Shown piece after piece: positions 18,652-42,865 of a DNA stretch of 64,000 nt. Origin of the DNA: Frankiales bacterium. Lineage in GTDB: Bacteria; Actinomycetota; Actinomycetes; Mycobacteriales; SCTD01. Location of the stretch: assembly GCA_025465135.1 (NCBI GenBank), contig JAODNA010000084.1, positions 2,599 to 66,598 on the forward strand, given 5' to 3'. The notes under the pieces are model-generated. The model was not told the origin of the DNA. It did no database searches and worked only from the letters and a program-made list of their open reading frames with translations. Made by a program: the position numbers and the translations under genes. Within the stretch, counting starts at the first letter, position 1. Each line of letters opens with the position of its first letter.

Positions 18652-20691
18652 TCAGGCCTGGCGCTGCAAGGGCGTGACCGCGGCGAGCGGCCGGCGGTAC
18701 TCCTCGAGCCACGACTCCACCTCATCCGCCGGCAGCGGTCGCGAGAGGTGGTAGCCCTGGATCACGTCGCAGCCCAGGGCCCTGAGCATGTTCCAGGTCT
18801 CGGCGTCCTCCACGCCCTCCGCCACCAGGCGCAGCCCGAGGTTGTGGCCGAGCTCGATCGTCGAGCGCACGATCACCGCGTCGTTGGAGTTCGTCGTCAT
18901 CGTGAACACGAAGGACTTGTCGATCTTGAGCTCGTTGGCCTCGAGGCGCTTGAGGTAGGAGAGCGAGGAGTAGCCGGTCCCGAAGTCGTCGATCGACAGC
19001 GAGACTCCGAGGTCGCGCAGCAGGCCCAGCACGGTCATCGTGCGCGTGGGATCGACCATGATCGTCGTCTCGGTCACCTCGAGCGTCAGTGACTCGGGCG
19101 GCACGCCCCATCGCCCGAGGAGCCCGGCGACCTGCCGCGGCAGCTCCAGATCTGTCAGGCAGCGCACGGAGATGTTGACCGCGACGCCGAGCGGCGTTCC
19201 GGCGTCCCGCAGCCTGCGTGCGAAGCACAGTGACTGGTCGAGCACCTCGAGCGTCAGCGCGCCGATCAGGCCGGTGTTCTCCGCGATGGGGATGAAGTCG
19301 TCCGGGTAGACGAGGCCGCGCGCCGGGTGCTGCCAGCGGACCAGGGCCTCCAGACCGACGAGGTCACCTGTCGCGGCGTCGCACTTGGGCTGGTAGTAGA
19401 CCCGCAGCTGCCCGTCGCTGACCCCCTCGCGGAGCTCGCCGAGCAGGGCGAGCTTCTCGACGCTGTGAAGGTCGCGCTCGGGCAGGTAGAACGCGTAGGT
19501 GCCGCGGTGCTCCTTCGCGGCGTAGAGCGCCACATCGGCGCGCTGCATCAGCGTCGTGACGTCCGAGCCGTGCTCCGGGGCGAGCGCGATGCCCACACTG
19601 GCCTGCACGTCCAGCCGCACTCCGTCGATGCTGAACGGCTGCATGAGGGCGGCGACGAGTCGCTGGGCGACGAGCTCCGCAGCGGCCCGCCCGTCGAGAT
19701 CACAGGCCAGTACGGCGAACTCGTCGCCACCCAGCCGGGCGACCGTGTCGCCTTCCCGCATGGCGGTCCGGAGCCGCGCGCCCACCTGCCGGAGCAGCTG
19801 GTCGCCGACGTAGTGGCCGAGGGTGTCGTTGATCTCCTTGAAGTGGTCCAGGTCGATCAGCAGCACCGCGGTGCCGACGGCGCTGCGCTCCGCCGCCTCG
19901 AGCGCGCGCCCGGTGCGGTCGCTGAGGTAGAGCCGGTTGGGAAGCCCCGTCAGTCCGTCGTGCAGGGCTTGGCGCTCGCGCTCGGCAGCGAGCTTCGCGC
20001 TGCGGTGGACGGCGGCGATCGGCAGCAGCATGAGGGGAAGCAGCAGCAGGGAGAAGCCGGTCGCGACCACGACGACCGGGGCGAAGGCGAGCAGGACGCC
20101 CGAGGTCGAGAGCTGGAAGCGCACGTCGTCGCGCAGGTGGGGCAGCACGGGCTTGTTCAGTGCCAGCGCGACGACGATGCCGGTCAGGCCGTTGTTGACG
20201 ATGAAGAACACCGCGCCCGCGGCGAGCGCGGGGACGACGTCGTGCACCTGCAGCGGCGTCGCGTCGGAGGCGAACGTCCGGTGGGTCAGCAGGCAGAACA
20301 CCATCCGCGTCACCGCGCCGGACAGGACCAGCTGGGCGTTGTTGAACAGGAGCCTCTGGAGGTTCTTGCGACGTCGGATGTCGTCGAGGCTGACGGCGGC
20401 GACCTGCGCGGCGAGCAGGACCCAGACCGGGCCGAGGATGGCCAGGGCGAGGATGAAGGTGCTGGCGATGGTGACCTCGTCGAGGTCGTCCTCACCGCGG
20501 GAGATCACGATGGGCTGGGACTCGCCGACCACCAGCAGGGCCGCGAGAACCAGCACCGTCAGGCTCGGGACCTCGACCCGTGCGGGCAGGTGCTGCACCA
20601 GCACGTCGGCGACCACGGCAGCGCCGGCGGCGATCACGGCGAACACGTAGGTGTTCAGCCGCGACGGCCGCAGTCGAGCCGCGAGCTGCAC
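18652..20691 (-). CDS. Membrane-anchored GGDEF-EAL protein (c-di-GMP synthase/phosphodiesterase)
   Basis: N-terminal multi-TM region, GGDEF (RLGGDEFAV) and EAL (EALVRW, DDFGTGYSSLSYL, KIDKSF). GTG 20691 is preceded by aggag with a 5-nt spacer. Confidence 0.9.
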   Translation of the reverse strand: MQLAARLRPSRLNTYVFAVIAAGAAVVADVLVQHLPARVEVPSLTVLVLAALLVVGESQPIVISRGEDDLDEVTIASTFILALAILGPVWVLLAAQVAAVSLDDIRRRKNLQRLLFNNAQLVLSGAVTRMVFCLLTHRTFASDATPLQVHDVVPALAAGAVFFIVNNGLTGIVVALALNKPVLPHLRDDVRFQLSTSGVLLAFAPVVVVATGFSLLLLPLMLLPIAAVHRSAKLAAERERQALHDGLTGLPNRLYLSDRTGRALEAAERSAVGTAVLLIDLDHFKEINDTLGHYVGDQLLRQVGARLRTAMREGDTVARLGGDEFAVLACDLDGRAAAELVAQRLVAALMQPFSIDGVRLDVQASVGIALAPEHGSDVTTLMQRADVALYAAKEHRGTYAFYLPERDLHSVEKLALLGELREGVSDGQLRVYYQPKCDAATGDLVGLEALVRWQHPARGLVYPDDFIPIAENTGLIGALTLEVLDQSLCFARRLRDAGTPLGVAVNISVRCLTDLELPRQVAGLLGRWGVPPESLTLEVTETTIMVDPTRTMTVLGLLRDLGVSLSIDDFGTGYSSLSYLKRLEANELKIDKSFVFTMTTNSNDAVIVRSTIELGHNLGLRLVAEGVEDAETWNMLRALGCDVIQGYHLSRPLPADEVESWLEEYRRPLAAVTPLQRQA

Positions 20692-20933
20692 GAGTGCTCC
20701 TGTCGGATCGGCGGGTTGCCCCGGGGTCCCGGCCGGGCGCACCCGGCAACCACGCGGGACAGGTCCCGCGCTAGGTATGTCGTCCGATACGCCCAGGTCT
20801 TGAGCCGCCGCGAGCCTGTTCCTCCCTCGTCCGCGCCGCACGCACCCCCCGAAAGGGGGACCGGAACTCACGGCTACACCTCCAGGCACGTCATGCCGAC
20901 ATATCCCTGTCGGACGAGCGGGAGGGGCGGCGG

Positions 20934-31018: not shown

Positions 31019-31211
31019 GCGCACTCCTCCGTCGGCGGCACCGAGCATGCCACGCGGCCCGCCGCGCAGACCTCCCAAGAATTACGCCATTCGGCCCACT
31101 ACTTTCGGGCCCCCTGTTGGTTACTCTCTGTGTCGATCGACGTCGCTCAGGGTGACTCTTCGGGGCTGGCCGGGGCGACGACGGTGATCGGCGGGCACTC
31201 GCCCGCCGACA

Positions 31212-31506
31212 GAAGGAAGCACTGATCCGGACGGTCCACACCGACGACGCGCAGGCGTCGCACGGAGAGACACGGTCGCCTAGGCCGCCCGGGGAGCTAG
31301 TGGCGAGACCGACCTGCCCAGTGAACAGGACGTCCTCGGACGCCCCGCTCATCGGACGCAGAGGCCTTGATCCGCGTGGTCCTCACCGACGCCCCCGGGC
31401 GCACGGAGGAACACGGTCGCCAGACCGCGCGGGGAGCCAGTGGCGAGACCGGCTCGTTCGGTGGCGGTGCGTCGTGGACGCCCTCTACTTGGACGGGAGT
31501 CCCCGC
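31212..31506 (+). promoter_or_regulatory. Conserved structured 5' leader, copy 1 (two tandem ~105-145-nt units), candidate cis-regulatory RNA
   Basis: Near-identical to 32799-33106. Invariant core cggggagcYagtggcgagaccg at 31290-31311 and 31430-31451. Stem ggtcgcc/ggcga(g)acc. Variable hairpins carry compensatory changes. Confidence 0.6.
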
Positions 31507-32527: not shown

Positions 32528-32798
32528 CATGCCCCGGCTGTCCAGGCGGGTCACGCGCGAACCCGTTCCACTACAGCGCGTGATGTGCGCCCGGGTCCGG
32601 GCCGCGTGCCCCGCCTGCCCCGGGTGGGGAGTTTTTGCCCGGATGTCGCCTTTTGCGGCAGCAAGTTACGCCATTCGGCCCACTACTTCCGGGCCACTCT
32701 GTAGTTACTCTGTGTGTCTGCTGCAGCGCAGAAGGTGAATCTTTTTGACTCACCCCACGTGATGAAGCGGCAACTGCGGGTATACGCCCGTCGTTGAG

Positions 32799-33106
32799 CA
32801 AGGAAGCGTTGATCCGGATGGTCCACACCGGTTCGCCCCCTTCGGGGACGTGAGCACGGAGAGACTCGGTCGCCTAGACCGTTCGGGGAGCTAGTGGCGA
32901 GACCGACCTGCCCCAGTGAGCAGGGCGTCCTTCGGGCGTCCAGTCACCGGATGCAGAGGCTGTGATCCGCACGGTCCTCACCGACGCCGAACCTGGCGCA
33001 CGGAGGAAGACGGTCGCCAAGACCGCGCGGGGAGCTAGTGGCGAGACCGGCTCGTCCGGTAGCTGGACATCTTCCGATGCCCTCTACCTCGGACGGGAGT
33101 CCCCGC
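32799..33106 (+). promoter_or_regulatory. Conserved structured 5' leader, copy 2, candidate cis-regulatory RNA
   Basis: Aligns with 31212-31506. Cores at 32884-32905 and 33028-33049. Same ggacgggagtccccgc immediately before the start codon. Confidence 0.6.
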
Positions 33107-34714
33107 GTGCGCACCACCACCAGCACTTCAGGCATCACCGGCAAGGCCCGCCGCGCGCCCGTCGTCACGACGCTCGCGGCCCTCTGCCTCGCCCTTCCCA
33201 TGAGCGGCATCTTCGGTGGCACGGCTTTCGCCACTAACGACAAGGCCGCCTCGGATCACGGCGCGTCCTCCGCGCCCGGCCAGCAGAAGAAGGCCGACCC
33301 GGGCAGCAGCAGCGCCACCACCGCGAGCACCGACTCGAGCACGAGCAGCGCCAGCAGCTCCGCGGACAGCACGCCCGGCAACAGCGACCACAGCCAGGGC
33401 AACGCCTCCACGAGCGGCAGCTACAACCAGCCGCAGCCCTACTCGAACGCGGACAGCAACAACACCGGCGCCAACGACACGTCGGCCTCCAACCCCTACC
33501 GCTCGACCCGCGACGGGTCGCCGTCGATGAACGGCAACGGCGGTGGCAACGCGGGCGGCAAGCCATGCGCCGGCTGTGTGGGCAAGGCCGACAACAAGAA
33601 CCCGAAGGGTCAGGCGCCCGGCGGCTCGGACCACAACAACGGCTACGAGTGCGATGGCAACAACGGCATCGGAAAGGGCAACCCGGCCCACACCGGCTGC
33701 ACCACCGGCGGGACGACACCGCCTCCGCCGAGCTGTGTCCCGACGGCGGCCAACCACCACTGCGACACCGACACGCCTCCGCCGGGCTGTGTCCCGACGG
33801 CGGCCAACCACCACTGCGACACCGACAAGGCCTGCCCGAACGGCAGCCCGATGCCGGCCAGCGGCGACTGCGGGGGTGGTGACCACGGCAACAAGAACGA
33901 CAAGGTCACCATCTGCCACGCGACCGGCTCCGCGAGCAACCCCTTCGTCGTCATCACGCCGAACAAGAACGGCGTCGTGCACGGCCACGCCAAGCACGGT
34001 GACGACATCATCCCGCCGTTCGACTACAACGACCACGGCGTGACGAAGCACTTCCCCGGCCTGAACTGGACGGCTGCCAACCAGGCCGCGTTCCACAACG
34101 GCTGCAGCGTGCCGGCAGCCCCGAAGTGCCCGAACGGCTCGGCGATGCCGGCCTCAGGGAACATCGCAGACTGCACCCCGCCGGTTGTCTGCCCGGCCGG
34201 TTCGACGATGGTCAACGGCGTCTGCACCCCGCCGGTCGTGTGCCCGGCCGGTTCGACGATGGTCAACGGCGTCTGCACCCCGCCGGTCGTGTGCCCGTCC
34301 GGTTCGACGATGGTCAACGGCGTCTGCACCCCGCCGGTCGTCTGCCCTGAGGGAACGCAGATGGCACCTGGGGCGACCAGCTGCACGCCGCCGCTGGTGT
34401 GCCCCAACGGTGCGATGGTCGGACCCATCGTGCCCGGCACGGCTCGTCCGGGCTGCCCGATCGAGGGGGGCACCGGCAACGGCGCGCAGACCCCGCCGGT
34501 GTCCGCACCCGTCCCGACCGTCATCGGTCAGGGCACCACGCCGCAGGCCGTGCAGGGCGGCACGCCCACGCCGGCCGTCGTGTCGGCCCGGCCGACGGCG
34601 CTGCCCTTCACCGGCAGCAACGCCGGCCTGCTCGCCGAGGGCGCTGCGCTGATGCTCCTCATCGGCACCGGCCTCGTCGTGGCCGCTCGCCGGAAGGTGG
34701 CTCTCGCCGCCTAG
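33107..34714 (+). CDS. LPXTG-anchored Cys-rich repeat surface protein
   Basis: GTG 33107 aligned with ATG 31507. Signal peptide ...IFGGTAFA, Ser/Asn-rich region, CVPTAANHHCDTD x2, ICHATGSASNPFVVITP motif, CTPPVVCPAGSTMVNGV x3-4. C-terminus LPFTGSN + hydrophobic segment + RRK. Confidence 0.85.
   Translation: MRTTTSTSGITGKARRAPVVTTLAALCLALPMSGIFGGTAFATNDKAASDHGASSAPGQQKKADPGSSSATTASTDSSTSSASSSADSTPGNSDHSQGNASTSGSYNQPQPYSNADSNNTGANDTSASNPYRSTRDGSPSMNGNGGGNAGGKPCAGCVGKADNKNPKGQAPGGSDHNNGYECDGNNGIGKGNPAHTGCTTGGTTPPPPSCVPTAANHHCDTDTPPPGCVPTAANHHCDTDKACPNGSPMPASGDCGGGDHGNKNDKVTICHATGSASNPFVVITPNKNGVVHGHAKHGDDIIPPFDYNDHGVTKHFPGLNWTAANQAAFHNGCSVPAAPKCPNGSAMPASGNIADCTPPVVCPAGSTMVNGVCTPPVVCPAGSTMVNGVCTPPVVCPSGSTMVNGVCTPPVVCPEGTQMAPGATSCTPPLVCPNGAMVGPIVPGTARPGCPIEGGTGNGAQTPPVSAPVPTVIGQGTTPQAVQGGTPTPAVVSARPTALPFTGSNAGLLAEGAALMLLIGTGLVVAARRKVALAA
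34171..34380 (+). repeat. Intragenic 51-bp tandem repeat (3 full copies plus diverged copies)
   Basis: ctgcaccccgccggtcgtgtgcccggccggttcgacgatggtcaacggcgt. Period 51 (34171, 34222, 34273). Confidence 0.85.
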
Positions 34715-34766: not shown

Positions 34767-34774
34767 CGTTCCGG

Positions 34775-34860
34775 CGGAGGATGCGAGATTCGAACTCGCG
34801 AGGGGTTGCCCCCAACACGCTTTCCAAGCGTGCGCCATAGGCCAACTAGGCGAATCCTCC
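34775..34860 (-). tRNA. tRNA-Ser (anticodon GGA), CCA not encoded
   Basis: The reverse complement gives acceptor ggaggat/atcctcc, anticodon loop ttGGAaa, a long variable arm and T-loop gagttcgaatctc. Confidence 0.92.
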
Positions 34861-34954: not shown

Positions 34955-35056
34955 ACGTCAGACCCCTCGTGCGGCGCCCATCTCGCTGAACTCCCCCAGG
35001 GCCGGAAGGCAGCAAGGGCAGGCGGGCTCTGGGCGGGTGTGCGAGGGGTCCTTACT
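34955..35056 (+). ncRNA. ffs: Signal recognition particle RNA (small bacterial type, 4.5S-like); ends approximate
   Basis: Conserved domain IV sequence cagggccggaaggcagcaagggcagg. Closing helix gacccctcg...cgaggggtc. Canonical position between tRNA-Ser and dnaX. Confidence 0.85.
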
Positions 35057-35074: not shown

Positions 35075-36991
35075 GTGAGCCTGGCGCTGTATCGCAAGTA
35101 CCGGCCCGGGACGTTCGCGGAGCTCAAGGGCCAGGAGCACGTCACCGGCCCCCTGCAGCAGGCACTGCGCAACGGCCGCATCCACCACGCTTACCTGTTC
35201 AGCGGGCCGCGTGGCTGCGGCAAGACCTCCAGCGCGCGCATCCTCGCGCGCAGCCTGAACTGCGAGAAGGGCCCGACGCCCGACCCCTGCGGCGTCTGCG
35301 ACTCGTGCGTCGCGCTCGCGCCCAACGGCCCGGGCAGCCTCGACGTCGTCGAGATCGACGCGGCTTCGCACGGCGGTGTCGACGACGCCCGCGACCTGAG
35401 GGACCGCGCCTTCTACTCGCCGGTCGCGAGCCGCTTCAAGGTCTACATCATCGACGAGGCCCACATGGTCTCCCGGGAGGGCTTCAACGCCCTGTTGAAA
35501 CTGGTCGAGGAGCCACCGGAGTTCCTGCGGTTCGTGTTCGCGACGACGGAGCCCGAGAAGGTGCTCGCGACGATCCGCTCGCGGACGCACCACGACCCCT
35601 TCCGGCTGATGCCCCGCCGGGAGCTGACCGAGCTGCTGCAGGACGTCGTCGACAAGGAGGGCATCGCCGTCGACAGGACGGTGCTGCCACTCGTCGTGCG
35701 CGCGGCCGCCGGCTCTGCCCGTGACGGCCTGTCGATCCTCGACCAGGTGCTGGCATCGGCCGGGGCCGACGGCGTGACGCGGGAGGCAGCGGCCGGTCTG
35801 CTCGGTGTCACTCCTGACACCCTGCTCGACGACGTGGTCGACGCGTTCGCTGCCCGTGACAGCGCTGCGGTCTTCGGGGCCGTCGACCTGGTGATGGAGC
35901 GCGGTCACGACCCACGGCGCTTCGCGCAGGACGTCTTGGAGCGGCTACGCGACCTCGTCGTTCTGGACGCCGTGCCCGACGCCGGCGACAAGGGACTGCT
36001 CGACTGCCCCGCCGACCAGCTCGAGCGGATGGGCCGGCAGGCCACGATGCTCGGCACCGCCGGCCTCTCGCGTGCGGCCGACCTGTTCCACGAGGGCCTG
36101 ACCGAGATGCGCGGTACGACGGCGCCGCGCCTGCTGCTCGAGCTCGTGTGCGCCCGCGTGCTCCTCCCAGCTGCTGCGCACGACGCCGGCTCGGTGCTCA
36201 CGCGCATCGAGCGGCTGGAGCGCCGCCTCGACATCGCGACCCCGAGCTCGGGAGCGGTGCCGGCAGCGCACCCCCCTTCCGTCGCGTCAGAGGCCCCACG
36301 CGGCAGCGGTGCACCCGTCGACGGACGCACCGACCCGCAACCGCCGTCGGAGTCGCAGTCGAAGCCGCAGTCGCAGTCGAAGCCGCAGCCGCAGTCGCCG
36401 CCGGCTCCGGTGACGTGGCCGAGCACGGCGCCGCTGGGCGGGGACGACGCCGCTGCACCGGAGACCGCACCGACGGACGCATCCGCGATCGCCACCGCTG
36501 CGGCTGCACCGGAGGACGCGCCGACGGCTGGATTGGACGCGGCGGCGCTGCGCCGGTCCTGGGACGCGGTGCTCGATGCGGTGAAGACGCGCAAGCGCAC
36601 GACCCACGCACGTCTGCTCGACGCGCAGGTGCTGCACGTGCGCGGTCGCCTGCTCACCATGGGCTTCACGACTCCCACCCTGGCCAAGCAGTTCAAGGAC
36701 AGCGTCAACATCGAGGTGCTCCGCGAGGCGCTGGCCGAGGCGATCGGGGCGGACCTCGACGTCGACTGCGTGGTGGCAGGAGCGGCCGCGCCGCCGCCGA
36801 GCACGCCGACGTCGCAGGCGGCCGGTCCACCGCCCACGGCGCACGAGGGCTTCGCTCCGGGCGACGAGGCTGTTGCGGAAGACCCGGACGCACCGCCTGC
36901 GCCGGACCGTGTCCTGAACGGGGAGGACGCCGCCTTGCGTCTCATCGAGAGCGAGCTCGGTGGCAAGGTCGTCGGAACCGTCGGCGAGTAG
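35075..36991 (+). CDS. dnaX: DNA polymerase III subunits gamma/tau
   Basis: VSLALYRKYRPGTFAELKGQEHV, GPRGCGKTS, Zn module CGVCDSC, IIDEAHM. GTG 35075 after caggagg. The upstream part of the track ORF covers the SRP RNA. Confidence 0.95.
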   Translation: MSLALYRKYRPGTFAELKGQEHVTGPLQQALRNGRIHHAYLFSGPRGCGKTSSARILARSLNCEKGPTPDPCGVCDSCVALAPNGPGSLDVVEIDAASHGGVDDARDLRDRAFYSPVASRFKVYIIDEAHMVSREGFNALLKLVEEPPEFLRFVFATTEPEKVLATIRSRTHHDPFRLMPRRELTELLQDVVDKEGIAVDRTVLPLVVRAAAGSARDGLSILDQVLASAGADGVTREAAAGLLGVTPDTLLDDVVDAFAARDSAAVFGAVDLVMERGHDPRRFAQDVLERLRDLVVLDAVPDAGDKGLLDCPADQLERMGRQATMLGTAGLSRAADLFHEGLTEMRGTTAPRLLLELVCARVLLPAAAHDAGSVLTRIERLERRLDIATPSSGAVPAAHPPSVASEAPRGSGAPVDGRTDPQPPSESQSKPQSQSKPQPQSPPAPVTWPSTAPLGGDDAAAPETAPTDASAIATAAAAPEDAPTAGLDAAALRRSWDAVLDAVKTRKRTTHARLLDAQVLHVRGRLLTMGFTTPTLAKQFKDSVNIEVLREALAEAIGADLDVDCVVAGAAAPPPSTPTSQAAGPPPTAHEGFAPGDEAVAEDPDAPPAPDRVLNGEDAALRLIESELGGKVVGTVGE

Positions 36992-36998
36992 CCCCGAC

Positions 36999-38420
36999 TC
37001 AACCGCCGTTGCGGATGTCCCAGACCGTCGTGTCGACTGTCACCGGCTGACCGGCAGGTGACAGGAAGGCACCGGCGCTCGCGCGCCACGCGGCCAGTGA
37101 CGGATTCGTCAGATCCCGGTCGACGGCCGCAGCGCCGCCGAGGTAGGTCGTCGAGATCGCGTGGTTGAGCCCGACGTCGCAGCTCTGGGACTCGAACACG
37201 ACGGTGACGCGGTTGGCGTCGGGGGGCGATGTCTCGCCATCGAGCTGCGGCACGACGTCGTAGCGGTTCTCCAGGGCCAGCACGGAGACCGACGCGGGGA
37301 CGGGCATGCGCGCGATCGGTGAGCCCGCCGTGACGACGTGCGTCACCGTGAACCTGCCGTCCTGGGCGTACTGCTCCGCGGCGCGCATCGCGACCAACCC
37401 ACCCTGGCTGTGGCCCACGAGCATGACCGGCTCATCGCGACCGACCCCGGCGAGCTCGAGGGCGCGGGTGAGCCCATCGACCCGGGCGCTGTGGTCTCCG
37501 GCCATCGTCGTCAGGTTGGTCGCCAGATCGTTGAGGTGGTCACGCCGGCGCGGGTCGACCTGCCAGTCCTTGGTGCCTGGAAGGTCGACGATCCAGGACG
37601 TCGTCGTCGCGCCGTCGGCGCCGACGCGGCTCAGCCTGCGGATGTCGATCTCGCCCTGGCCCTGCCCTTGGGACAGGTCGTCGCGGTGACCGAGCGCGGT
37701 GATCAGGTCACCGACGTTGCGAGGCGCCGGCGGCGCGGACGTGTCGGTGCCGCGACCGGCGACCGTTGCAGATCCGGCCGGATAGAGCATGGCGACCAGC
37801 CCGGCGGCGTGCTCGAGCGAGGACCCGGGTGACGCGAGGTGACCCGGCGCGACCAGGGCGGCGATGAGCCCGGCCGGGCCGAGGCTGAGGTCGAGGATGC
37901 CGGCCAGGAGGGACGGCGCTGCACCGGACGCCTCCTCGGCGACCCCCGGGTGTGCGGACAGGAAGCCGTCGAGATGTCCGCCCCTCACCCAGCCGGCGGT
38001 GGCGATGCCGGCCGGTGAGACGGCGAGGAAGGGAAGCATCGGAAGCGACAGGACCAGGGCGGTGCTCTCGGCCCAGTGGCGGAGGTCGTCGAGGCGCGCG
38101 TCCAGGCGGTCGGCGGCGGCGTAGCGGAGCACCGCGGCATGCAGCGACAGGCTTCGGCCCTCCAACCGGCCGGCCGTCAGGAGCAGTCCGTGCGGACCCA
38201 GGACGGCTGCCAGGACGGCTGCCTCGACCCGCGCGAACCCACCCGGATCGAGGACCGCGCTCGCCAGCAACCCGGTATCAGCCAGGATGCGTCGGGCGTT
38301 GAGTGCGGTGTCGGCGACGTCGAGCGCCGCGAGCTCCAGCACGTGGGCAGCGGCTGCCAGGTCGTCGTACTCGACATCGAGCCCGCCGGCGCCGCCGCTG
38401 ACGTCGATCGTGCTGGTCAC
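36999..38420 (-). CDS. Alpha/beta hydrolase (lipase/esterase-like, GHSQGG) with a ~290-aa N-terminal helical domain; candidate secreted effector
   Basis: GTG 38420 (VTSTIDVSGGAGGLDVEYDDLAAAAHVLE...) overlaps the upstream stop (GTGA). C-terminal region has VMLVGHSQGGLVAMRAAE and AGSPIARMP. The remaining 310 aa of the track ORF overlap the next two genes in other frames. Confidence 0.7.
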   Translation of the reverse strand: MTSTIDVSGGAGGLDVEYDDLAAAAHVLELAALDVADTALNARRILADTGLLASAVLDPGGFARVEAAVLAAVLGPHGLLLTAGRLEGRSLSLHAAVLRYAAADRLDARLDDLRHWAESTALVLSLPMLPFLAVSPAGIATAGWVRGGHLDGFLSAHPGVAEEASGAAPSLLAGILDLSLGPAGLIAALVAPGHLASPGSSLEHAAGLVAMLYPAGSATVAGRGTDTSAPPAPRNVGDLITALGHRDDLSQGQGQGEIDIRRLSRVGADGATTTSWIVDLPGTKDWQVDPRRRDHLNDLATNLTTMAGDHSARVDGLTRALELAGVGRDEPVMLVGHSQGGLVAMRAAEQYAQDGRFTVTHVVTAGSPIARMPVPASVSVLALENRYDVVPQLDGETSPPDANRVTVVFESQSCDVGLNHAISTTYLGGAAAVDRDLTNPSLAAWRASAGAFLSPAGQPVTVDTTVWDIRNGG

Positions 38421-39043
38421 GACAGCGCCGCCCCGACGAACGGGGCCACGCAGGCGCCGAGGTCGGCCGGAGCGACCGGCCGGACGACGGCCCAGCGCAC
38501 CCCGTCGCGGACCTCCGCCGGCTCCAGCGACAGCCAGCCCGACGCGGTCGCCAGCCACACCACGTGACCCATCACGTGCGGCGGCGCAACCACCGTCGCG
38601 CGCAGCGTGCCCAGCACGGCGTCGACGAGCCCCGGTGACCGCGCGACGTCGGCCAGCGGCAGGTGGAGCTCCGCAGCCCGGCCCGTGCCGAGCGGCGGCA
38701 CGCAGCGGGCCAGCTCCTCGCCGAGGCGCAGCGGCGACCACGCGGACACCTCGCGCCCGTCTTCGCCGACCCTCATCACCGATGCGCCCAGCTCGCCACG
38801 GATCCCGAAAGCAGCCGCCACACCGCCCAGCGTCGACACGTGGACCCCGACCCTCGGGGCACAGGTCACCGCGAGTCCGGCAGCCAGGGCCGGCGGGACC
38901 ACACCGTCCATCAGCACGCCCGCGGTGCTGATCGGTCGCGGCGCGCGGTCGATGCCGGGTGGCAGCCGCAGGCCGAGCCGCGCACACAAGGACGCTGTCT
39001 CGCCGGGCTGCAGCGCGAGCCGCCGGGCCAGCAGCGCCGTCAC
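38417..39043 (-). CDS. Hypothetical protein, possibly an EspG-like chaperone
   Basis: 208 aa from GTG 39043, with GTGA overlaps at both ends. The weak EspG-like pattern rests on my judgement only. Confidence 0.45.
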   Translation of the reverse strand: MTALLARRLALQPGETASLCARLGLRLPPGIDRAPRPISTAGVLMDGVVPPALAAGLAVTCAPRVGVHVSTLGGVAAAFGIRGELGASVMRVGEDGREVSAWSPLRLGEELARCVPPLGTGRAAELHLPLADVARSPGLVDAVLGTLRATVVAPPHVMGHVVWLATASGWLSLEPAEVRDGVRWAVVRPVAPADLGACVAPFVGAALS

Positions 39044-39372
39044 GGGAGCACGCCCTCCAGCGCCGACACGGCGGACACCACGAGGCGCTTGGCCGCCCGC
39101 TCCACCGCGAGGAGACGCGCGATCTCCGCGCGGACAGCGTCGGCGTGCCCGCGCATCGCGGCGGCTGCGTCGTCGAGCTCCCCGGCCGCCCGGTCGAGGA
39201 TGCCGGCCTCGCCAGAGACGGAGGCGTGGAAGGCGTCGGCGGCCGGACCACGCCACCGCAGCCAGGTCGACGACCCGCGCACGACCCGGGCACGGTCGCG
39301 CGTCTCCGCTGCGGCCGCGGACAGCTGCGCCCCGAGCCGGTCGAGGTCATCGGGGTCGCCGTACCGGGACAT
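39040..39372 (-). CDS. WXG-like helical protein homologous to the N-terminus of the toxin at 12018..13493
   Basis: MSRYGDPDDLDRLGAQL...WLRWRGPAADAFHASV...AAAAMRGHADAVRAEIA aligns with GDPAQVEWLAREY...GAWVGPAGDAFRKAI...CLSDYARVLRDAQA. Confidence 0.65.
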   Translation of the reverse strand: MSRYGDPDDLDRLGAQLSAAAAETRDRARVVRGSSTWLRWRGPAADAFHASVSGEAGILDRAAGELDDAAAAMRGHADAVRAEIARLLAVERAAKRLVVSAVSALEGVLP

Positions 39373-39484
39373 GCGGTGAGGGTGACAGCGAAACCCGGAC
39401 CAGGCGGCGGCCTGGCCTGCGACTGTGGACAACCGTTGGCCCTAGGCTCGGTCCCGACCCCAGACGGGCCACCAGGGAGACACG

Positions 39485-39811
39485 ATGCCGGCGCAGCCGA
39501 ACATGCAGCAGCTGATGAAGCAGGCCCAGAAGATGCAGCAGCAGATGCTCTCGGCCCAGCAGGAGCTCGCAGCCACCGAGGTGAGCGGTACGGCGGGTGG
39601 TGGCCTCGTCACCGCGACGGTCACGGGGGCGGGTGAGGTGCTGAGCGTCAAGATCGACCCCAAGGCCGTCGACCCGGACGACGTCGAGAGCCTGGAGGAC
39701 CTCGTCGTCGCCGCCATCCGCGACGCCAACCGCGCCGCCGCCGCGCTCGCCGACGAGAAGATGGGGCCCTTGACCGCAGGGATGGGCGGCCTCGGCCTGC
39801 CCGGCATGTAG
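39485..39811 (+). CDS. ybaB: YbaB/EbfC-family nucleoid-associated protein
   Basis: [16 protein letters not shown]...[27 protein letters not shown]. Confidence 0.93.
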
Positions 39812-40411
39812 ATGTATGAAGGCGCCGTACAGGACCTGATCGACGAGCTCGGCCGATTGCCCGGCGTGGGTCCGAAGAGCGCTCAGCGGATCGCCTTCCA
39901 CCTGCTCGCTGCCGACCCGGTCGACGTGCGCCGGCTGGTGTCCGCCCTGACCGAGGTGAAGGAGAAGGTGCGGTTCTGCCGGATCTGCTGCAACGTCAGC
40001 GAGCAGGACGAGTGCCGCGTCTGCCGTGACCCGCGACGCGACCTCACGGTGATCTGCGTCGTCGAGGAGCCCAAGGATGTCGTCGCGATCGAGAAGACGC
40101 GCGAGTTCCGTGGTCGCTACCACGTGCTGGGCGGTGCCATCTCACCGATCGAGGGCGTCGGTCCGGACGACCTTCGGGTGCGCGAGCTGATGGTGCGACT
40201 GCAGGACGGATCGGTGACCGAGCTGATCCTCGCCACCGACCCCAACCTCGAGGGGGAGGCGACGGCGACCTACCTCGCCCGCCTGGTCAAGCCGATGGGG
40301 CTGCGCGTGACGCGGCTGGCAAGCGGGCTGCCCGTGGGGGGCGACCTGGAGTACGCCGACGAGGTGACACTCGGCCGTGCGTTCGAGGGCAGGAGACAGG
40401 TCGATGTCTGA
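39812..40411 (+). CDS. recR: Recombination protein RecR
   Basis: [17 protein letters not shown], Zn finger [16 protein letters not shown], Toprim [14 protein letters not shown]. Confidence 0.95.
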
Positions 40412-40937
40412 CGCTCAGCTGGCACAGGACGTGGCGCTCGACGTCCGGTCCTTCCTCGAGACGCTCGAAGCGGTTGCTGCGGGTGAGGCGGGCGACGCCT
40501 CCATCTCGCTGCTGCTGCTGGACGTCGCGCGCATCTGCGTCGCGGGAGCGCAGCTCGGCGCCCTCACGGACGTCATCCTGGAGTCCAACGTCGAGCCGGT
40601 GGTGCAGTCGGTCCCCGATGTCGACGCCCTGCGCGTCCGGCTCGCGGAGGAGCTCGAGCCGATCGACGAGTACACCGAGGTCTTCGACCCGTACGGCGAC
40701 AACGAGCTCGTGCCGTACTTCCTGTCCGACGACCTCACCGAGATCGCGGGAGACCTCGTCCACGGCCTGCGGCACTTCGACGCCGGCCGGGTCGAGGAGT
40801 CGTTGTGGTGGTGGCAGTTCACCTACCTCAACCACTGGGGCACGCACGCCGGTGCCGCCTTGCGCGCGCTGCAGTCGGTCGTCGCGCATGCACGACTGGA
40901 CGCGTTGCCCGAGCCCGCCCTCGACCTCGGGGAGTGA
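40404..40937 (+). CDS. DUF5063-family protein
   Basis: ATG 40404 overlaps the recR end. Acidic protein ending ...[22 protein letters not shown], commonly found downstream of recR in Actinobacteria. Confidence 0.7.
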
Positions 40938-41815
40938 CCGAGCTCCGGCCGCTCCGGGCCGACGACGTCGAAGCGGCGGATGCGATGGCGTTCGCGTCGC
41001 TGCGTGAGGCTGTCGCGGTCTACCAGCCGGGGGCGCCCCGCTGGCCGGACCGGTCCGAAGAGCGGACCGCGCAGGCGCGGCTGCGCATCGCCCATCTGCG
41101 CGAGACAGACCCGGACGGCGCGTGGGTCGCGGTCGACGGGGAGCAGGTCGTCGGGCTTGCGCTGTCGCTGCGCCGCGGCCCGATGTGGTTCCTGTCGCTG
41201 CTCGCGGTGGACACCGCACTGCAGTCGCGTGGCGTCGGCAAGTCCCTGCTCGAAGCGGCGCTGCGGACGTCGGAGGGAGCGGGCGCAGCCTGGATCCTCG
41301 CGACCACCGACCCGAAGGCGCTGCGCCGCTACGCGGTCGCCGGCTTTGCGCCGCATCCCGGATACACCGCCGTCGGACCCCTGGACCGTTCGCTGCTCCC
41401 CGCCGGGCTCGCCGTACGTGACGGCGACTGGTCTCAGGATGCGGAGCTCGTGGAGGACGTCGTCACCGCACTTCGGGGCGCGCCGTATGGACCTGATCTC
41501 GACGCCATGCGCGCGACCGGGCAGCAGCTCGTCACCGCATCGGACGGCGCGGACCGCGGCTTCCTCGTCCTGCGCGCCGGTACGGTCGGCTCGCTCGGGG
41601 CCACGTCACCGGCCCTCGCGCAGCGGCTCCTGTGGGAGGCGCTGGCCCGCGCCGACAAGCCGGACATCACGATCGACTGGTTGACAGCGGATCAGCAGTG
41701 GGCCATCGACGTGGCACTCGCCGCGAGGCTGTCGCTGCTGTCGGGCCCGTCGTCCTGCCGGCGCAGCGCTCTCGGCCCGCTGACCCCCTACCTCCCGGGT
41801 GGGGCCTACGGCTGA
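40934..41815 (+). CDS. GNAT-family N-acetyltransferase
   Basis: GTG 40934 (GTGA overlap). Acetyl-CoA motif LLAVDTALQSRGVGKSLLEAAL. Confidence 0.75.
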   Translation: MTELRPLRADDVEAADAMAFASLREAVAVYQPGAPRWPDRSEERTAQARLRIAHLRETDPDGAWVAVDGEQVVGLALSLRRGPMWFLSLLAVDTALQSRGVGKSLLEAALRTSEGAGAAWILATTDPKALRRYAVAGFAPHPGYTAVGPLDRSLLPAGLAVRDGDWSQDAELVEDVVTALRGAPYGPDLDAMRATGQQLVTASDGADRGFLVLRAGTVGSLGATSPALAQRLLWEALARADKPDITIDWLTADQQWAIDVALAARLSLLSGPSSCRRSALGPLTPYLPGGAYG

Positions 41816-41866
41816 GCCGAGAGGGCCGGGCAGGAATGCCGACGGCTGTGCCGAAACCCCCGGGGC

Positions 41867-42865
41867 ATGCGGCTACGCCTGGCAGTCACCTTCGTGCTTC
41901 TCGCTGCGAGCACGGCCACGGCTCAGGGTGTCCTGGCGTCCGCACCGGCGTCGTGCGCCCCGCTCGCGGCTCGCGGTCCCCAGAACGGGCACAGCACGAC
42001 CCCACCGCCGCCGGCGCCGGTGCTGTTCGCGAAGGACTTCCGGGCACCGCTGGACTGCGAGTGGGGCATGGTGCTCGGCGGCTGGGGCGGGATCCGCAAA
42101 GGCGCTCCGCTGCACCACGACCCGGTCATCTTCGTCCACGGCAACCACAGTGACGCCGTCGACTGGTTCGGTGTCGCCGACGCGTTCAGGGCAGCCGGCT
42201 ACAGCGACCAGGAGCTGTGGGCTGTCTCCTACAACGGTCTCGGCGGACAGGTCGATGGCGCGCCGGTGGTCTGCCCGTGCCCGCCCAGCCAGCGGGCTCG
42301 CGACTACATGTCCCGCTCGGACGTCGCGCCGTACGCCGCCGAGGGCGGTCAGTACGCCGCCAACGCCGTCAACGTCCCCGACCTCTACGCCTTCACGAAG
42401 GCCGTCTTCGCGTACACCGGCGCTTCGCACGTGCAGTACGTCGGGCACTCGCTCGGCGTGACCGTCATCCGGAAGATGCTCTTCGATCATCCCGAGCTCT
42501 ACCGGCGTACCTCGGCGGTGGTGTCGATCGCCGGCGGCAACCACGGGACGTCCCTGTGCCGTGGCATGGAGGCGACGCTCTACGGCTGCGACGAGGTGGC
42601 GCCGGGCACGCCCTGGCTCAACCGCCTCAACGCCGCGGGTGAGTCACCGGGACCGACCAGGTGGATGGCCATCTTCAACGGCACCGATGACCTCGACCCG
42701 TTCTTCGTCCAGGGGCCGACCTACGACGACCGGTTGAGCCCTCGCCTGGCCGGCGCCACGAACCTGATGTACGGCGACGCCTACCACAGCGACCTGCGGG
42801 TCCGGCCCGACATCGTGGCGACCTACCTGGCGTTCCTGAGCAAGAACAGCTTTCTGCGCAGCTGA
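41867..42865 (+). CDS. Secreted lipase/esterase (class 2 lipase-like alpha/beta hydrolase)
   Basis: Signal peptide MRLRLAVTFVLLAASTATAQG, then VHGNHSD and nucleophile VGHSLGV. Confidence 0.8.
   Translation: MRLRLAVTFVLLAASTATAQGVLASAPASCAPLAARGPQNGHSTTPPPPAPVLFAKDFRAPLDCEWGMVLGGWGGIRKGAPLHHDPVIFVHGNHSDAVDWFGVADAFRAAGYSDQELWAVSYNGLGGQVDGAPVVCPCPPSQRARDYMSRSDVAPYAAEGGQYAANAVNVPDLYAFTKAVFAYTGASHVQYVGHSLGVTVIRKMLFDHPELYRRTSAVVSIAGGNHGTSLCRGMEATLYGCDEVAPGTPWLNRLNAAGESPGPTRWMAIFNGTDDLDPFFVQGPTYDDRLSPRLAGATNLMYGDAYHSDLRVRPDIVATYLAFLSKNSFLRS

Follow-up and report, generated by a model that had tools for sequence, protein, structure and literature searches.

Gene structure of the cassette

We analysed a 64,000-nt window of contig JAODNA010000084.1 from a Frankiales bacterium (assembly GCA_025465135.1; the window is the whole stretch of DNA under analysis, and all positions refer to it). 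Between dnaX and the ybaB-recR gene pair, at 36999-39372, lies a cassette of three minus-strand genes, hereafter g1, g2 and g3. The first, g1 (39040..39372), encodes a predicted helical partner protein of 110 amino acids (aa) that resembles WXG100 and T7SS_signal proteins; it begins with MSRYGDPDD, a start set by orthologue alignment. It is followed by g2 (38417..39043), whose compact 208-aa product is a predicted chaperone of the EspG family, and by g3 (36999..38420), which codes for a 473-aa effector candidate composed of a helical N-terminal domain and an alpha/beta hydrolase.

A preliminary description of this DNA had proposed a three-gene operon on the strand opposite to its neighbours, chained by GTGA overlaps at 39040-39043 and 38417-38420. 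This organization is borne out. In a frame plot of GC content at third codon positions (GC3) the signal is strong, and the minus-strand reading frame changes at ~39040 and ~38420. The pairs g1/g2 and g2/g3 are coupled via GTG/TGA overlaps (GTGA at 39043-39040 and 38420-38417, respectively), and gene calling by an independent program on L004, a Logan contig of the same soil sample, reproduced the 110/208/473-aa partition. A 783-aa open reading frame (ORF) at 36999..39350, which the same description had taken for a composite, is a mechanical artefact: it is the g3 frame extended upstream into Arg/Pro/Gly-rich nonsense. An assembly chimera is ruled out by the occurrence of the same layout in four independent relatives (L001, L006, L007 and L008), and by the separate Logan contig, which covers 36400-39529 unbroken.

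Predicted products of the three genes

The window copy of g1 scores below threshold in Pfam (PPE, 23 bits versus a threshold of 26, over model positions 31-103 only; T7SS_signal, 15.6 bits; WXG100, 15.6 bits versus 27.3) and against TIGR03930 (16.7 bits versus 44.85). Its orthologues exceed the gathering scores, with 33.9 and 29.3 bits for WXG100 in Lentzea and Segniliparus and 41.3 bits for T7SS_signal. A family profile built from 26 orthologues aligns over its full length to Staphylococcus aureus EsxA (2vs0, E-value 1.9e-4) and also matches EsxB structures. The profile alignment places W40 of the motif W40-R41-G42 (39247..39255, minus strand) on the WxG turn of EsxA. This tryptophan is invariant in the 26 orthologues, and the glycine is kept in the window clade and mostly replaced by serine in other lineages. 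As judged from this alignment, the 110-aa protein would have the form expected of a WXG100 hairpin, namely ~100 aa with W-x-G in the turn. Sequence comparison thus assigns g1 to the WXG100/T7SS_signal-like family, in line with the WXG-like character first proposed for it. A further claim, that g1 is clearly homologous to the N-terminus of the toxin encoded at 12018..13493, was too strongly put. The similarity to this T7SS_signal protein is real but modest, amounting to 29% identity over 77 aa (pairwise E-value 4e-4).

For the second product the label EspG-like had been given with a question mark, which can now be removed. Window g2 reaches 26.5 bits on ESX-1_EspG (PF14011) against a threshold of 27, and orthologues pass it with 38.5 and 40.3 bits. 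The AlphaFold2 (AF2) model of g2 is of high confidence (predicted local distance difference test score, pLDDT, 91.6; predicted template modelling score, pTM, 0.86). In a Foldseek search of the PDB with this model, the top 15 matches were all EspG3, EspG1 or EspG5 (probability 1.00, E-values 8e-10 to 8.5e-8, TMq 0.62-0.76), and the next match had an E-value of only 1e-2. When the g2 family profile was compared with PDB sequences, no EspG chain was retrieved, only designed coiled coils; Pfam and Foldseek are therefore the basis for assigning g2 to EspG. Together these indicate that g2 is a protein of predicted EspG fold, a fold made of two quasi-symmetric alpha/beta subdomains.

The third product had been described as a GHSQGG serine hydrolase behind a 290-aa helical N-terminal region. 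This architecture stands, except that the AF2 model of g3 (pLDDT 88.3, pTM 0.80) limits the helical domain to aa 1 to ~215 (37776..38420, minus strand). Its predicted helices comprise residues 18-46, 49-74 and 79-134, with others up to 210, and its conserved motifs are GGxGG (9-13), LxPxG (57-61), GPxG (75-78) and HPG (157-159), of which GGxGG, LxPxG and HPG are invariant. Two stretches, aa 121-141 and 170-193, are hydrophobic (Kyte-Doolittle 1.85-1.9). The first helical bundle ends with a YxxxD/E-type motif, Y100-A-A-A-D104 (38109..38123, minus strand). Y100 is invariant and D104 conserved in at least 90% of 54 g3 homologues, and both residues are invariant in sets of 15 and 25 sequences. No features of a Sec or Tat signal were read in the N-terminal sequence of g3, MTSTIDVSGGAGG. 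A YxxxD motif combined with the absence of a Sec signal would mark g3 as a putative substrate of a type VII secretion system (T7SS). The N-domain has no relative in Pfam and no sequence relative in the PDB, where its family profile found designed coiled coils only. We also considered whether it is a WXG100 paralogue, and hhalign against the g1 family showed no relationship.

The alpha/beta hydrolase region of g3 comprises aa 218-471, over which strands and helices alternate in the AF2 model. It exceeds the Pfam thresholds of PGAP1 (PF07819; 26.2 bits versus 24.3) and Abhydrolase_8 (PF06259; 23.3 versus 20.5). The nucleophile elbow GHSQGG with Ser338 (37398-37415, minus strand) is invariant in our alignments; among family representatives it reads GHSQGG in 71 of 96 and GHS[LE]GG in most others. 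Candidate residues for the rest of the catalytic triad, located within 37161..37259 on the minus strand, are Asp388 (37257-37259), Asp394 (37239-37241) and His420 (37161-37163), all invariant in 54 homologues. Motif, triad residues, Pfam scores and predicted fold agree in identifying an alpha/beta hydrolase. Foldseek with the full g3 model gave weak, generic matches to esterases, lipases and TesA (best E-value 4e-3), a profile comparison with the PDB likewise yielded only generic neighbours, and a weak Pfam match to Tle3 (E-value 0.012) is below threshold. The annotation PF26363 'Phospholipase-like', precomputed for three relatives, was not reproduced with the Pfam copy used here.

Nearly all of the 335 g3 homologues collected are full-length. 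We searched the N-domain profile against 1.84 billion representative proteins and obtained 578 clusters at 50% identity. Among the best 150 hits listed, 96 are at least 400 aa long, and 95 of these carry the same hydrolase behind the N-domain. Hence the N-domain is not shuffled in the manner of polymorphic-toxin heads. This and the lack of an LXG match in Pfam led us to reject the idea that g3 is a polymorphic toxin with an exchangeable N-domain.

Distribution of the cassette and its fourth gene

A scan of one genome per species returned 281 relatives of g3. Almost all of ~80 loci fetched across Actinomycetota share the order g1-g2-g3, and most of the overlaps are of the -4 type. Carriers belong to the genera Lentzea, Actinokineospora, Actinophytocola, Blastococcus, Actinoplanes, Micromonospora, Plantactinospora, Pilimelia, Dactylosporangium, Krasilnikovia and Segniliparus, and they include metagenome-assembled genomes (MAGs) of Egibacteraceae and Frankiales. 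The neighbourhoods of the cassette are mutually unrelated (108 Pfam families over 112 flanking ORFs at 39 other loci). Integrases or transposases adjoin some copies, and some genomes carry two. In one MAG the g3 homologue continues through a GNAT/CoA-ligase (Pat-like) gene as an ORF of 1266 aa (L024:6004-9804), probably owing to a lost stop codon or an error of assembly rather than to a true fusion.

Outside the window clade the cassette is larger. There, g1 has 140-175 aa and a conserved C-terminal extension (PPWxxWP...GDxxWLEVG), g2 has ~265 aa, and a lipoprotein gene lies directly 3' of g3 in 58 of 81 loci, often overlapping it by 4 bp (for example L002:7398-7865, L010:7389-7829, L011:7383-7850 and L035:7341-7802, with 54 further loci). 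The encoded lipoprotein (~141-167 aa) has a signal peptide, an L-x-G-C lipobox and a C-terminal KYGPRP, and belongs to no Pfam family. By analogy with other toxin loci, its most economical reading is that of a candidate extracytoplasmic immunity protein. Actinokineospora encodes a different protein of ~280 aa in the same position. In Lentzea, a fifth gene follows the lipoprotein gene and codes for a YbaB-fold paralogue (PF02575, 26-30 bits; L035:7799-8209 and L066:7793-8206). EspL, EspD and EspH, which have the YbaB fold, have been proposed as T7SS chaperones (PMC6109436). The Lentzea paralogue recalls these ESX-1 proteins, and the window cassette happens to abut the housekeeping ybaB. We considered this likeness as the reason why the cassette landed beside ybaB and discarded it: the paralogue is found only in Lentzea-type cassettes, at the opposite end.

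The cassette of the window clade is a slimmed version of three genes. Its g1 is devoid of the C-terminal extension, its g2 is ~55 aa shorter than the ~265-aa orthologues through three deletions, and the lipoprotein is absent; a hidden Markov model of the lipoprotein family had no match in the window or in L001, L006, L007 and L008. All five loci retain intact frames, both overlaps, and the WxG, YxxxD and triad residues. Compared with the sister loci, the ratio of non-synonymous to synonymous substitution rates (dN/dS) is 0.26-0.63 for g1-g3 versus 0.02-0.07 for recR and ybaB. The three genes are under purifying selection, yet they evolve 30-50x faster at non-synonymous sites than their neighbours.

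Insertion site and divergent spacer

On the plus strand, dnaX ends at 36991, with its stop codon convergent with that of g3 and 7 bp between them. At the other end of the cassette, ybaB (39485-39811, plus strand) diverges from g1 across a 112-bp spacer and is followed by recR (39812-40411, plus strand). For comparison we used 80 metagenome loci, each containing a RecR with 74-89% identity to that of the window. A same-strand dnaX lies upstream in 50 of them, and ~45 of these 50 are contiguous dnaX-ybaB-recR once ORF-extension artefacts are discounted, which agrees with the initial statement that dnaX is normally followed directly by ybaB and recR. None of these 50 dnaX-recR loci contains g1-g3. 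The cassette is present at the identical site in the four relatives named above (MAGs labelled Actinomycetota or Frankiales), and this location was seen only in the window's own clade. RecR of these sisters is 95-99% identical to that of the window and g3 is 57-66% identical. The 2.4-kb insertion inferred in the preliminary description is thus genuine; it is fixed in one clade, and it is old rather than a recent event because the proteins are only 57-66% identical across the four same-site relatives.

In three loci (L097, L109 and L134) the space between dnaX and ybaB is taken up by other, unrelated genes, so this junction tolerates insertions repeatedly. These genes are one resembling low-molecular-weight phosphatases, one that is TetR-like, and a set encoding an acyltransferase, a HAD protein and a lipoprotein. 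Insertion by a mobile element was considered and found no support: flanking short repeats occur at chance level only, and there are no mobile-element genes at the site. A tRNA-Ser(gga) gene (34773-34860, minus strand) and the signal recognition particle (SRP) RNA (34958-35056, plus strand) were likewise dismissed as junction markers, both being upstream of dnaX and away from the junctions. Since the mechanical dnaX ORF (34952..) shares its 5' end with the SRP RNA, the true dnaX start is near 35080 ('LALYRKYRP').

The spacer between g1 and ybaB (39373..39484) contains blocks that are conserved in an alignment of the clade. One is a -10-like TAnnnT element, TAGGCTCGG (39443-39451, plus strand), 37 nt before the ybaB ATG; it was also found in 11 of 45 cassette-free loci and hence is ancestral. 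A second block, TGTGGACA (39424-39431, plus strand), is invariant in the five cassette loci (5/5) and occurs in 0/45 loci without the cassette. This block is possibly an operator or part of the g1 promoter. Consensus scans detected no sigma-70 promoter and no intrinsic terminator in the region, such scans being uninformative in an actinobacterium of 72% GC.

Other features of the window

Downstream of recR (40377-42865, plus strand) lie a DUF5063 gene, found in the same position in L001, a GNAT acetyltransferase gene (40805..41815) and a gene for a class-2 lipase (41867..42865; PF01674) with a signal peptide. The first 'WXG-like operon' of the window (11725-13780, minus strand) comprises three genes, for products of 96 aa, 491 aa and, downstream, 100 aa. 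The N-domain of the 491-aa product scores strongly on T7SS_signal (72 bits); its C-terminal domain is without Pfam match, as are both small proteins. An S15/alpha-beta hydrolase is encoded at 10143..11786. The window also holds a GGDEF-EAL protein (18652..20889) and two tandem pairs of c-di-GMP-II-GAG riboswitch aptamers, four in all (31206-31463 and 32793-33060, plus strand; Rfam 50-63 bits). The second pair is directly upstream of a gene for a 558-aa Ser/Thr/Pro/Cys-repeat protein (33038..34714) whose C-terminus is weakly LPXTG-anchor-like.

Proposed function of the cassette

Taken together, the family assignments, the fold models and the analogy with known loci make it likely, in our view, that g1-g2-g3 encodes a substrate module for type VII (ESX-type) secretion, in the form of an orphan cassette. 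We infer the following course of events. The g3 protein would be synthesized in the cytoplasm without a Sec signal, and its helical N-domain would pair with the WXG100-like hairpin of g1, forming a helical bundle with a composite WxG and YxxxD export signal. The EspG-fold protein g2 would maintain the g1-g3 pair in solution, probably by masking the hydrophobic helices of g3 (aa 117-193), and pass the complex to an EccC-type ATPase while itself remaining intracellular. Outside the cell, the Ser338-Asp-His420 hydrolase may cleave envelope or membrane lipids as an esterase or lipase. Where a coupled lipoprotein gene follows g3, the lipoprotein would confer immunity and g3 would act as an interbacterial lipase toxin. 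The presence of a second T7SS_signal protein (72 bits) in the same window was also counted in favour of type VII export.

Several observations weigh against this proposal. Window g1 and g2 fall just under their Pfam thresholds, and the g3 N-domain has no detectable similarity to PE, LXG, WXG100 or T7SS_signal. Y100-D104 sits within a long helix in the AF2 model. Since the N-domain is almost never joined to another C-terminal domain, it may be an integral part of the enzyme and not purely a module for export. No T7SS core families are among the 108 Pfam families in the flanks of the 39 other loci, and none of EccC, EccB, EccD or mycosin was detected among the scanned large ORFs of the window. 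The sequence is present in soil DNA runs only and in no RNA runs. The structural matches of the hydrolase are weak, which makes a lipid substrate a tentative assignment, and the missing immunity gene in the window clade fits poorly with a self-toxic antibacterial lipase.

That no core genes were detected nearby would also suit an intracellular complex, in which g3 is a cytoplasmic or membrane-associated hydrolase anchored in the cell's own membrane by its helices and the EspG-like and WXG-like proteins serve as general assembly partners. The hydrophobic stretches of the N-domain, its constant association with one enzyme and a pTM that suggests a compact two-domain protein are all compatible with such a complex. 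We nevertheless find it improbable. Three independent conserved T7SS hallmarks (WXG100 fold, EspG fold and YxxxD) occur together, and the EspG and WXG100 families are known only in T7SS contexts (PMC11217815). The hydrophobic stretch is of variable length and missing from Blastococcus, and an extracytoplasmic lipoprotein partner implies action beyond the cytoplasm. Still less credible, to the point that we give it hardly any weight, is that the window cassette is a decaying remnant on its way to pseudogenes. The loss of the lipoprotein gene, of the PPW...WLEVG extension of g1 and of ~55 aa of g2 could be read as such decay, but five loci diverged to 57-66% identity have all kept their frames, -4 overlaps, triad, WxG and YxxxD, dN/dS is below 1 and the GC3 signal is strong.

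Export of g3 by a T7SS does not by itself imply antagonism. The enzyme could be a secreted or surface esterase or lipase, like LipY, that remodels the envelope lipids of its own cell or serves nutrition; we hold this to be possible, though not the leading explanation. That the lipoprotein of other lineages is then a surface anchor or cofactor is, to us, a similarly tentative idea. Such a role would accord with the purifying selection on g1-g3 in a clade without the lipoprotein gene, with the obligate pairing of N-domain and hydrolase, unlike that of shuffled polymorphic toxins, with the location of the cassette among housekeeping genes and with another secreted class-2 lipase 2.5 kb away. However, a coupled lipoprotein gene directly after the enzyme gene in 58/81 loci is the classic toxin-immunity layout, and rapid evolution, multiple copies per genome and integrase or transposase neighbours also speak for antagonism. 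The order partner-toxin-immunity is known from T7SS toxin loci, and the TslA/TilA pair combines a lipase with a lipoprotein (PMC10730906). On the strength of this order and this precedent, the family-level succession of partner, chaperone, enzyme and lipoprotein points to an antibacterial lipase in most lineages. The window itself has no such adjacency of toxin and immunity genes, and for its clade a role that is not self-toxic, such as envelope-lipid remodelling or lipid scavenging, is about as likely. Overall, on purely computational evidence, we suggest that g1-g2-g3 forms a substrate cassette for type VII export, whose enzyme may serve antagonism in most carriers and some other purpose in the window clade.

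Comparison with known systems

The literature describes EspG chaperones as dedicated to the PE/PPE substrates of mycobacterial ESX systems, and hardly any effectors are known for the type VII systems of Actinomycetota other than mycobacteria. A typical EspG attaches to the tip of its PPE-type partner, stays in the cytosol and is encoded within an ESX locus. Full-text literature searches retrieved reviews of EspG and T7SS variants, and no report on this cassette or on PF21725 or DUF1023 in such a context. The general logic of partner, chaperone and effector is already known; what is new is an uncharacterized and widespread cassette family. A wider proposal, which we put forward with clear reservation, is that the PE/PPE-EspG export logic is not a mycobacterial invention. 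It would instead belong to an old, Actinomycetota-wide family (at least 578 clusters, 281 species genomes) that unites EspG, a WXG100-like protein and a lipase with a new helical export domain, usually guarded by a lipoprotein; an immunity-less version would have become fixed in ffs-dnaX-ybaB-recR, where it shares a control region with ybaB. If this is true, the shared divergent control region suggests an effector domesticated for a non-antagonistic role, and the cassette may show EspG-assisted export as it was before the PE/PPE expansion. The four-gene cassette represents a large and readily testable candidate effector family for the T7SS of non-mycobacterial actinobacteria. The three-gene version of the window is a natural experiment in which the enzyme has survived the loss of the putative immunity gene and of portions of both partner and chaperone.

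The preliminary description had seen in the layout an echo of PE/PPE-EspG-lipase logic. The single elements of this likeness are supported, but the proteins are not members of the PE/PPE families (PF00934/PF00823): neither g1 nor g3 has an N-terminal Pro-Glu or Pro-Pro-Glu motif, and g3 has no PE match. As in PE25-PPE41-EspG5 and PE5-PPE4-EspG3, a small helical partner with a WxG turn would be joined to a partner with YxxxD/E after a helical hairpin, a dedicated chaperone of predicted EspG fold is present, and translation of the genes is coupled. As in LipY, the PE-domain lipase of ESX-5, a putative lipase domain is fused behind a helical domain that may serve export. Unlike PE/PPE proteins, g1 and g3 remain under the PE/PPE thresholds of Pfam, and the ~215-aa N-domain of g3 has no detectable PE homology. 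The cassette is not part of any ESX locus and is carried by Frankiales-like, Pseudonocardiales, Micromonosporales and Geodermatophilales genomes, and window g2, with 208 aa, is a shortened EspG. The hydrolase is PGAP1/Abhydrolase_8-like and neither of the hormone-sensitive-lipase type nor of the PE-PPE type (PF08237).

The T7SSb of Firmicutes offers a second comparison, with LXG toxins and their Lap partners and with the EspG-fold EsaE that serves EsaD. The order of partner(s), chaperone, toxin and, at the family level, a 3' immunity-like gene is the same, as are a helical N-domain of ~200 aa with a C-terminal enzyme and the existence of orphan cassettes away from the secretion locus. In contrast to LXG toxins, g3 has no LXG motif or Pfam match, its N-domain is unshuffled (95/96), and the window copy is without an immunity gene. 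The phylum is another one and presumably so is the T7SS subtype (T7SSa).

A further parallel is the TslA-TlaA1/TlaA2-TilA system of S. aureus (PMC10730906), in which a T7SS-linked lipase/esterase, as proposed for g3, is accompanied by small helical partners and, as in most cassette lineages, by an adjacent lipoprotein gene. The two differ in domain order: TslA has its lipase N-terminal and its helical domain C-terminal, the reverse of g3, and their sequences are unrelated. TilA belongs to DUF576 and the cassette lipoprotein to no Pfam family, and a predicted EspG-fold chaperone is found only in the cassette. The Tle/Tli pairs of the type VI secretion system (T6SS), made up of Tle phospholipase effectors and Tli immunity proteins that are periplasmic or lipoproteins, also unite a GxSxG lipase effector with an extracytoplasmic lipoprotein. 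They depend on a different secretion system with different targeting domains, and the Tle3 match of g3 is sub-threshold. What the cassette has in common with Tle/Tli is the pairing of a putative lipase with a lipoprotein; with PE/PPE-EspG and LipY it shares the helical partner, the chaperone and the position of the enzyme behind a helical domain.

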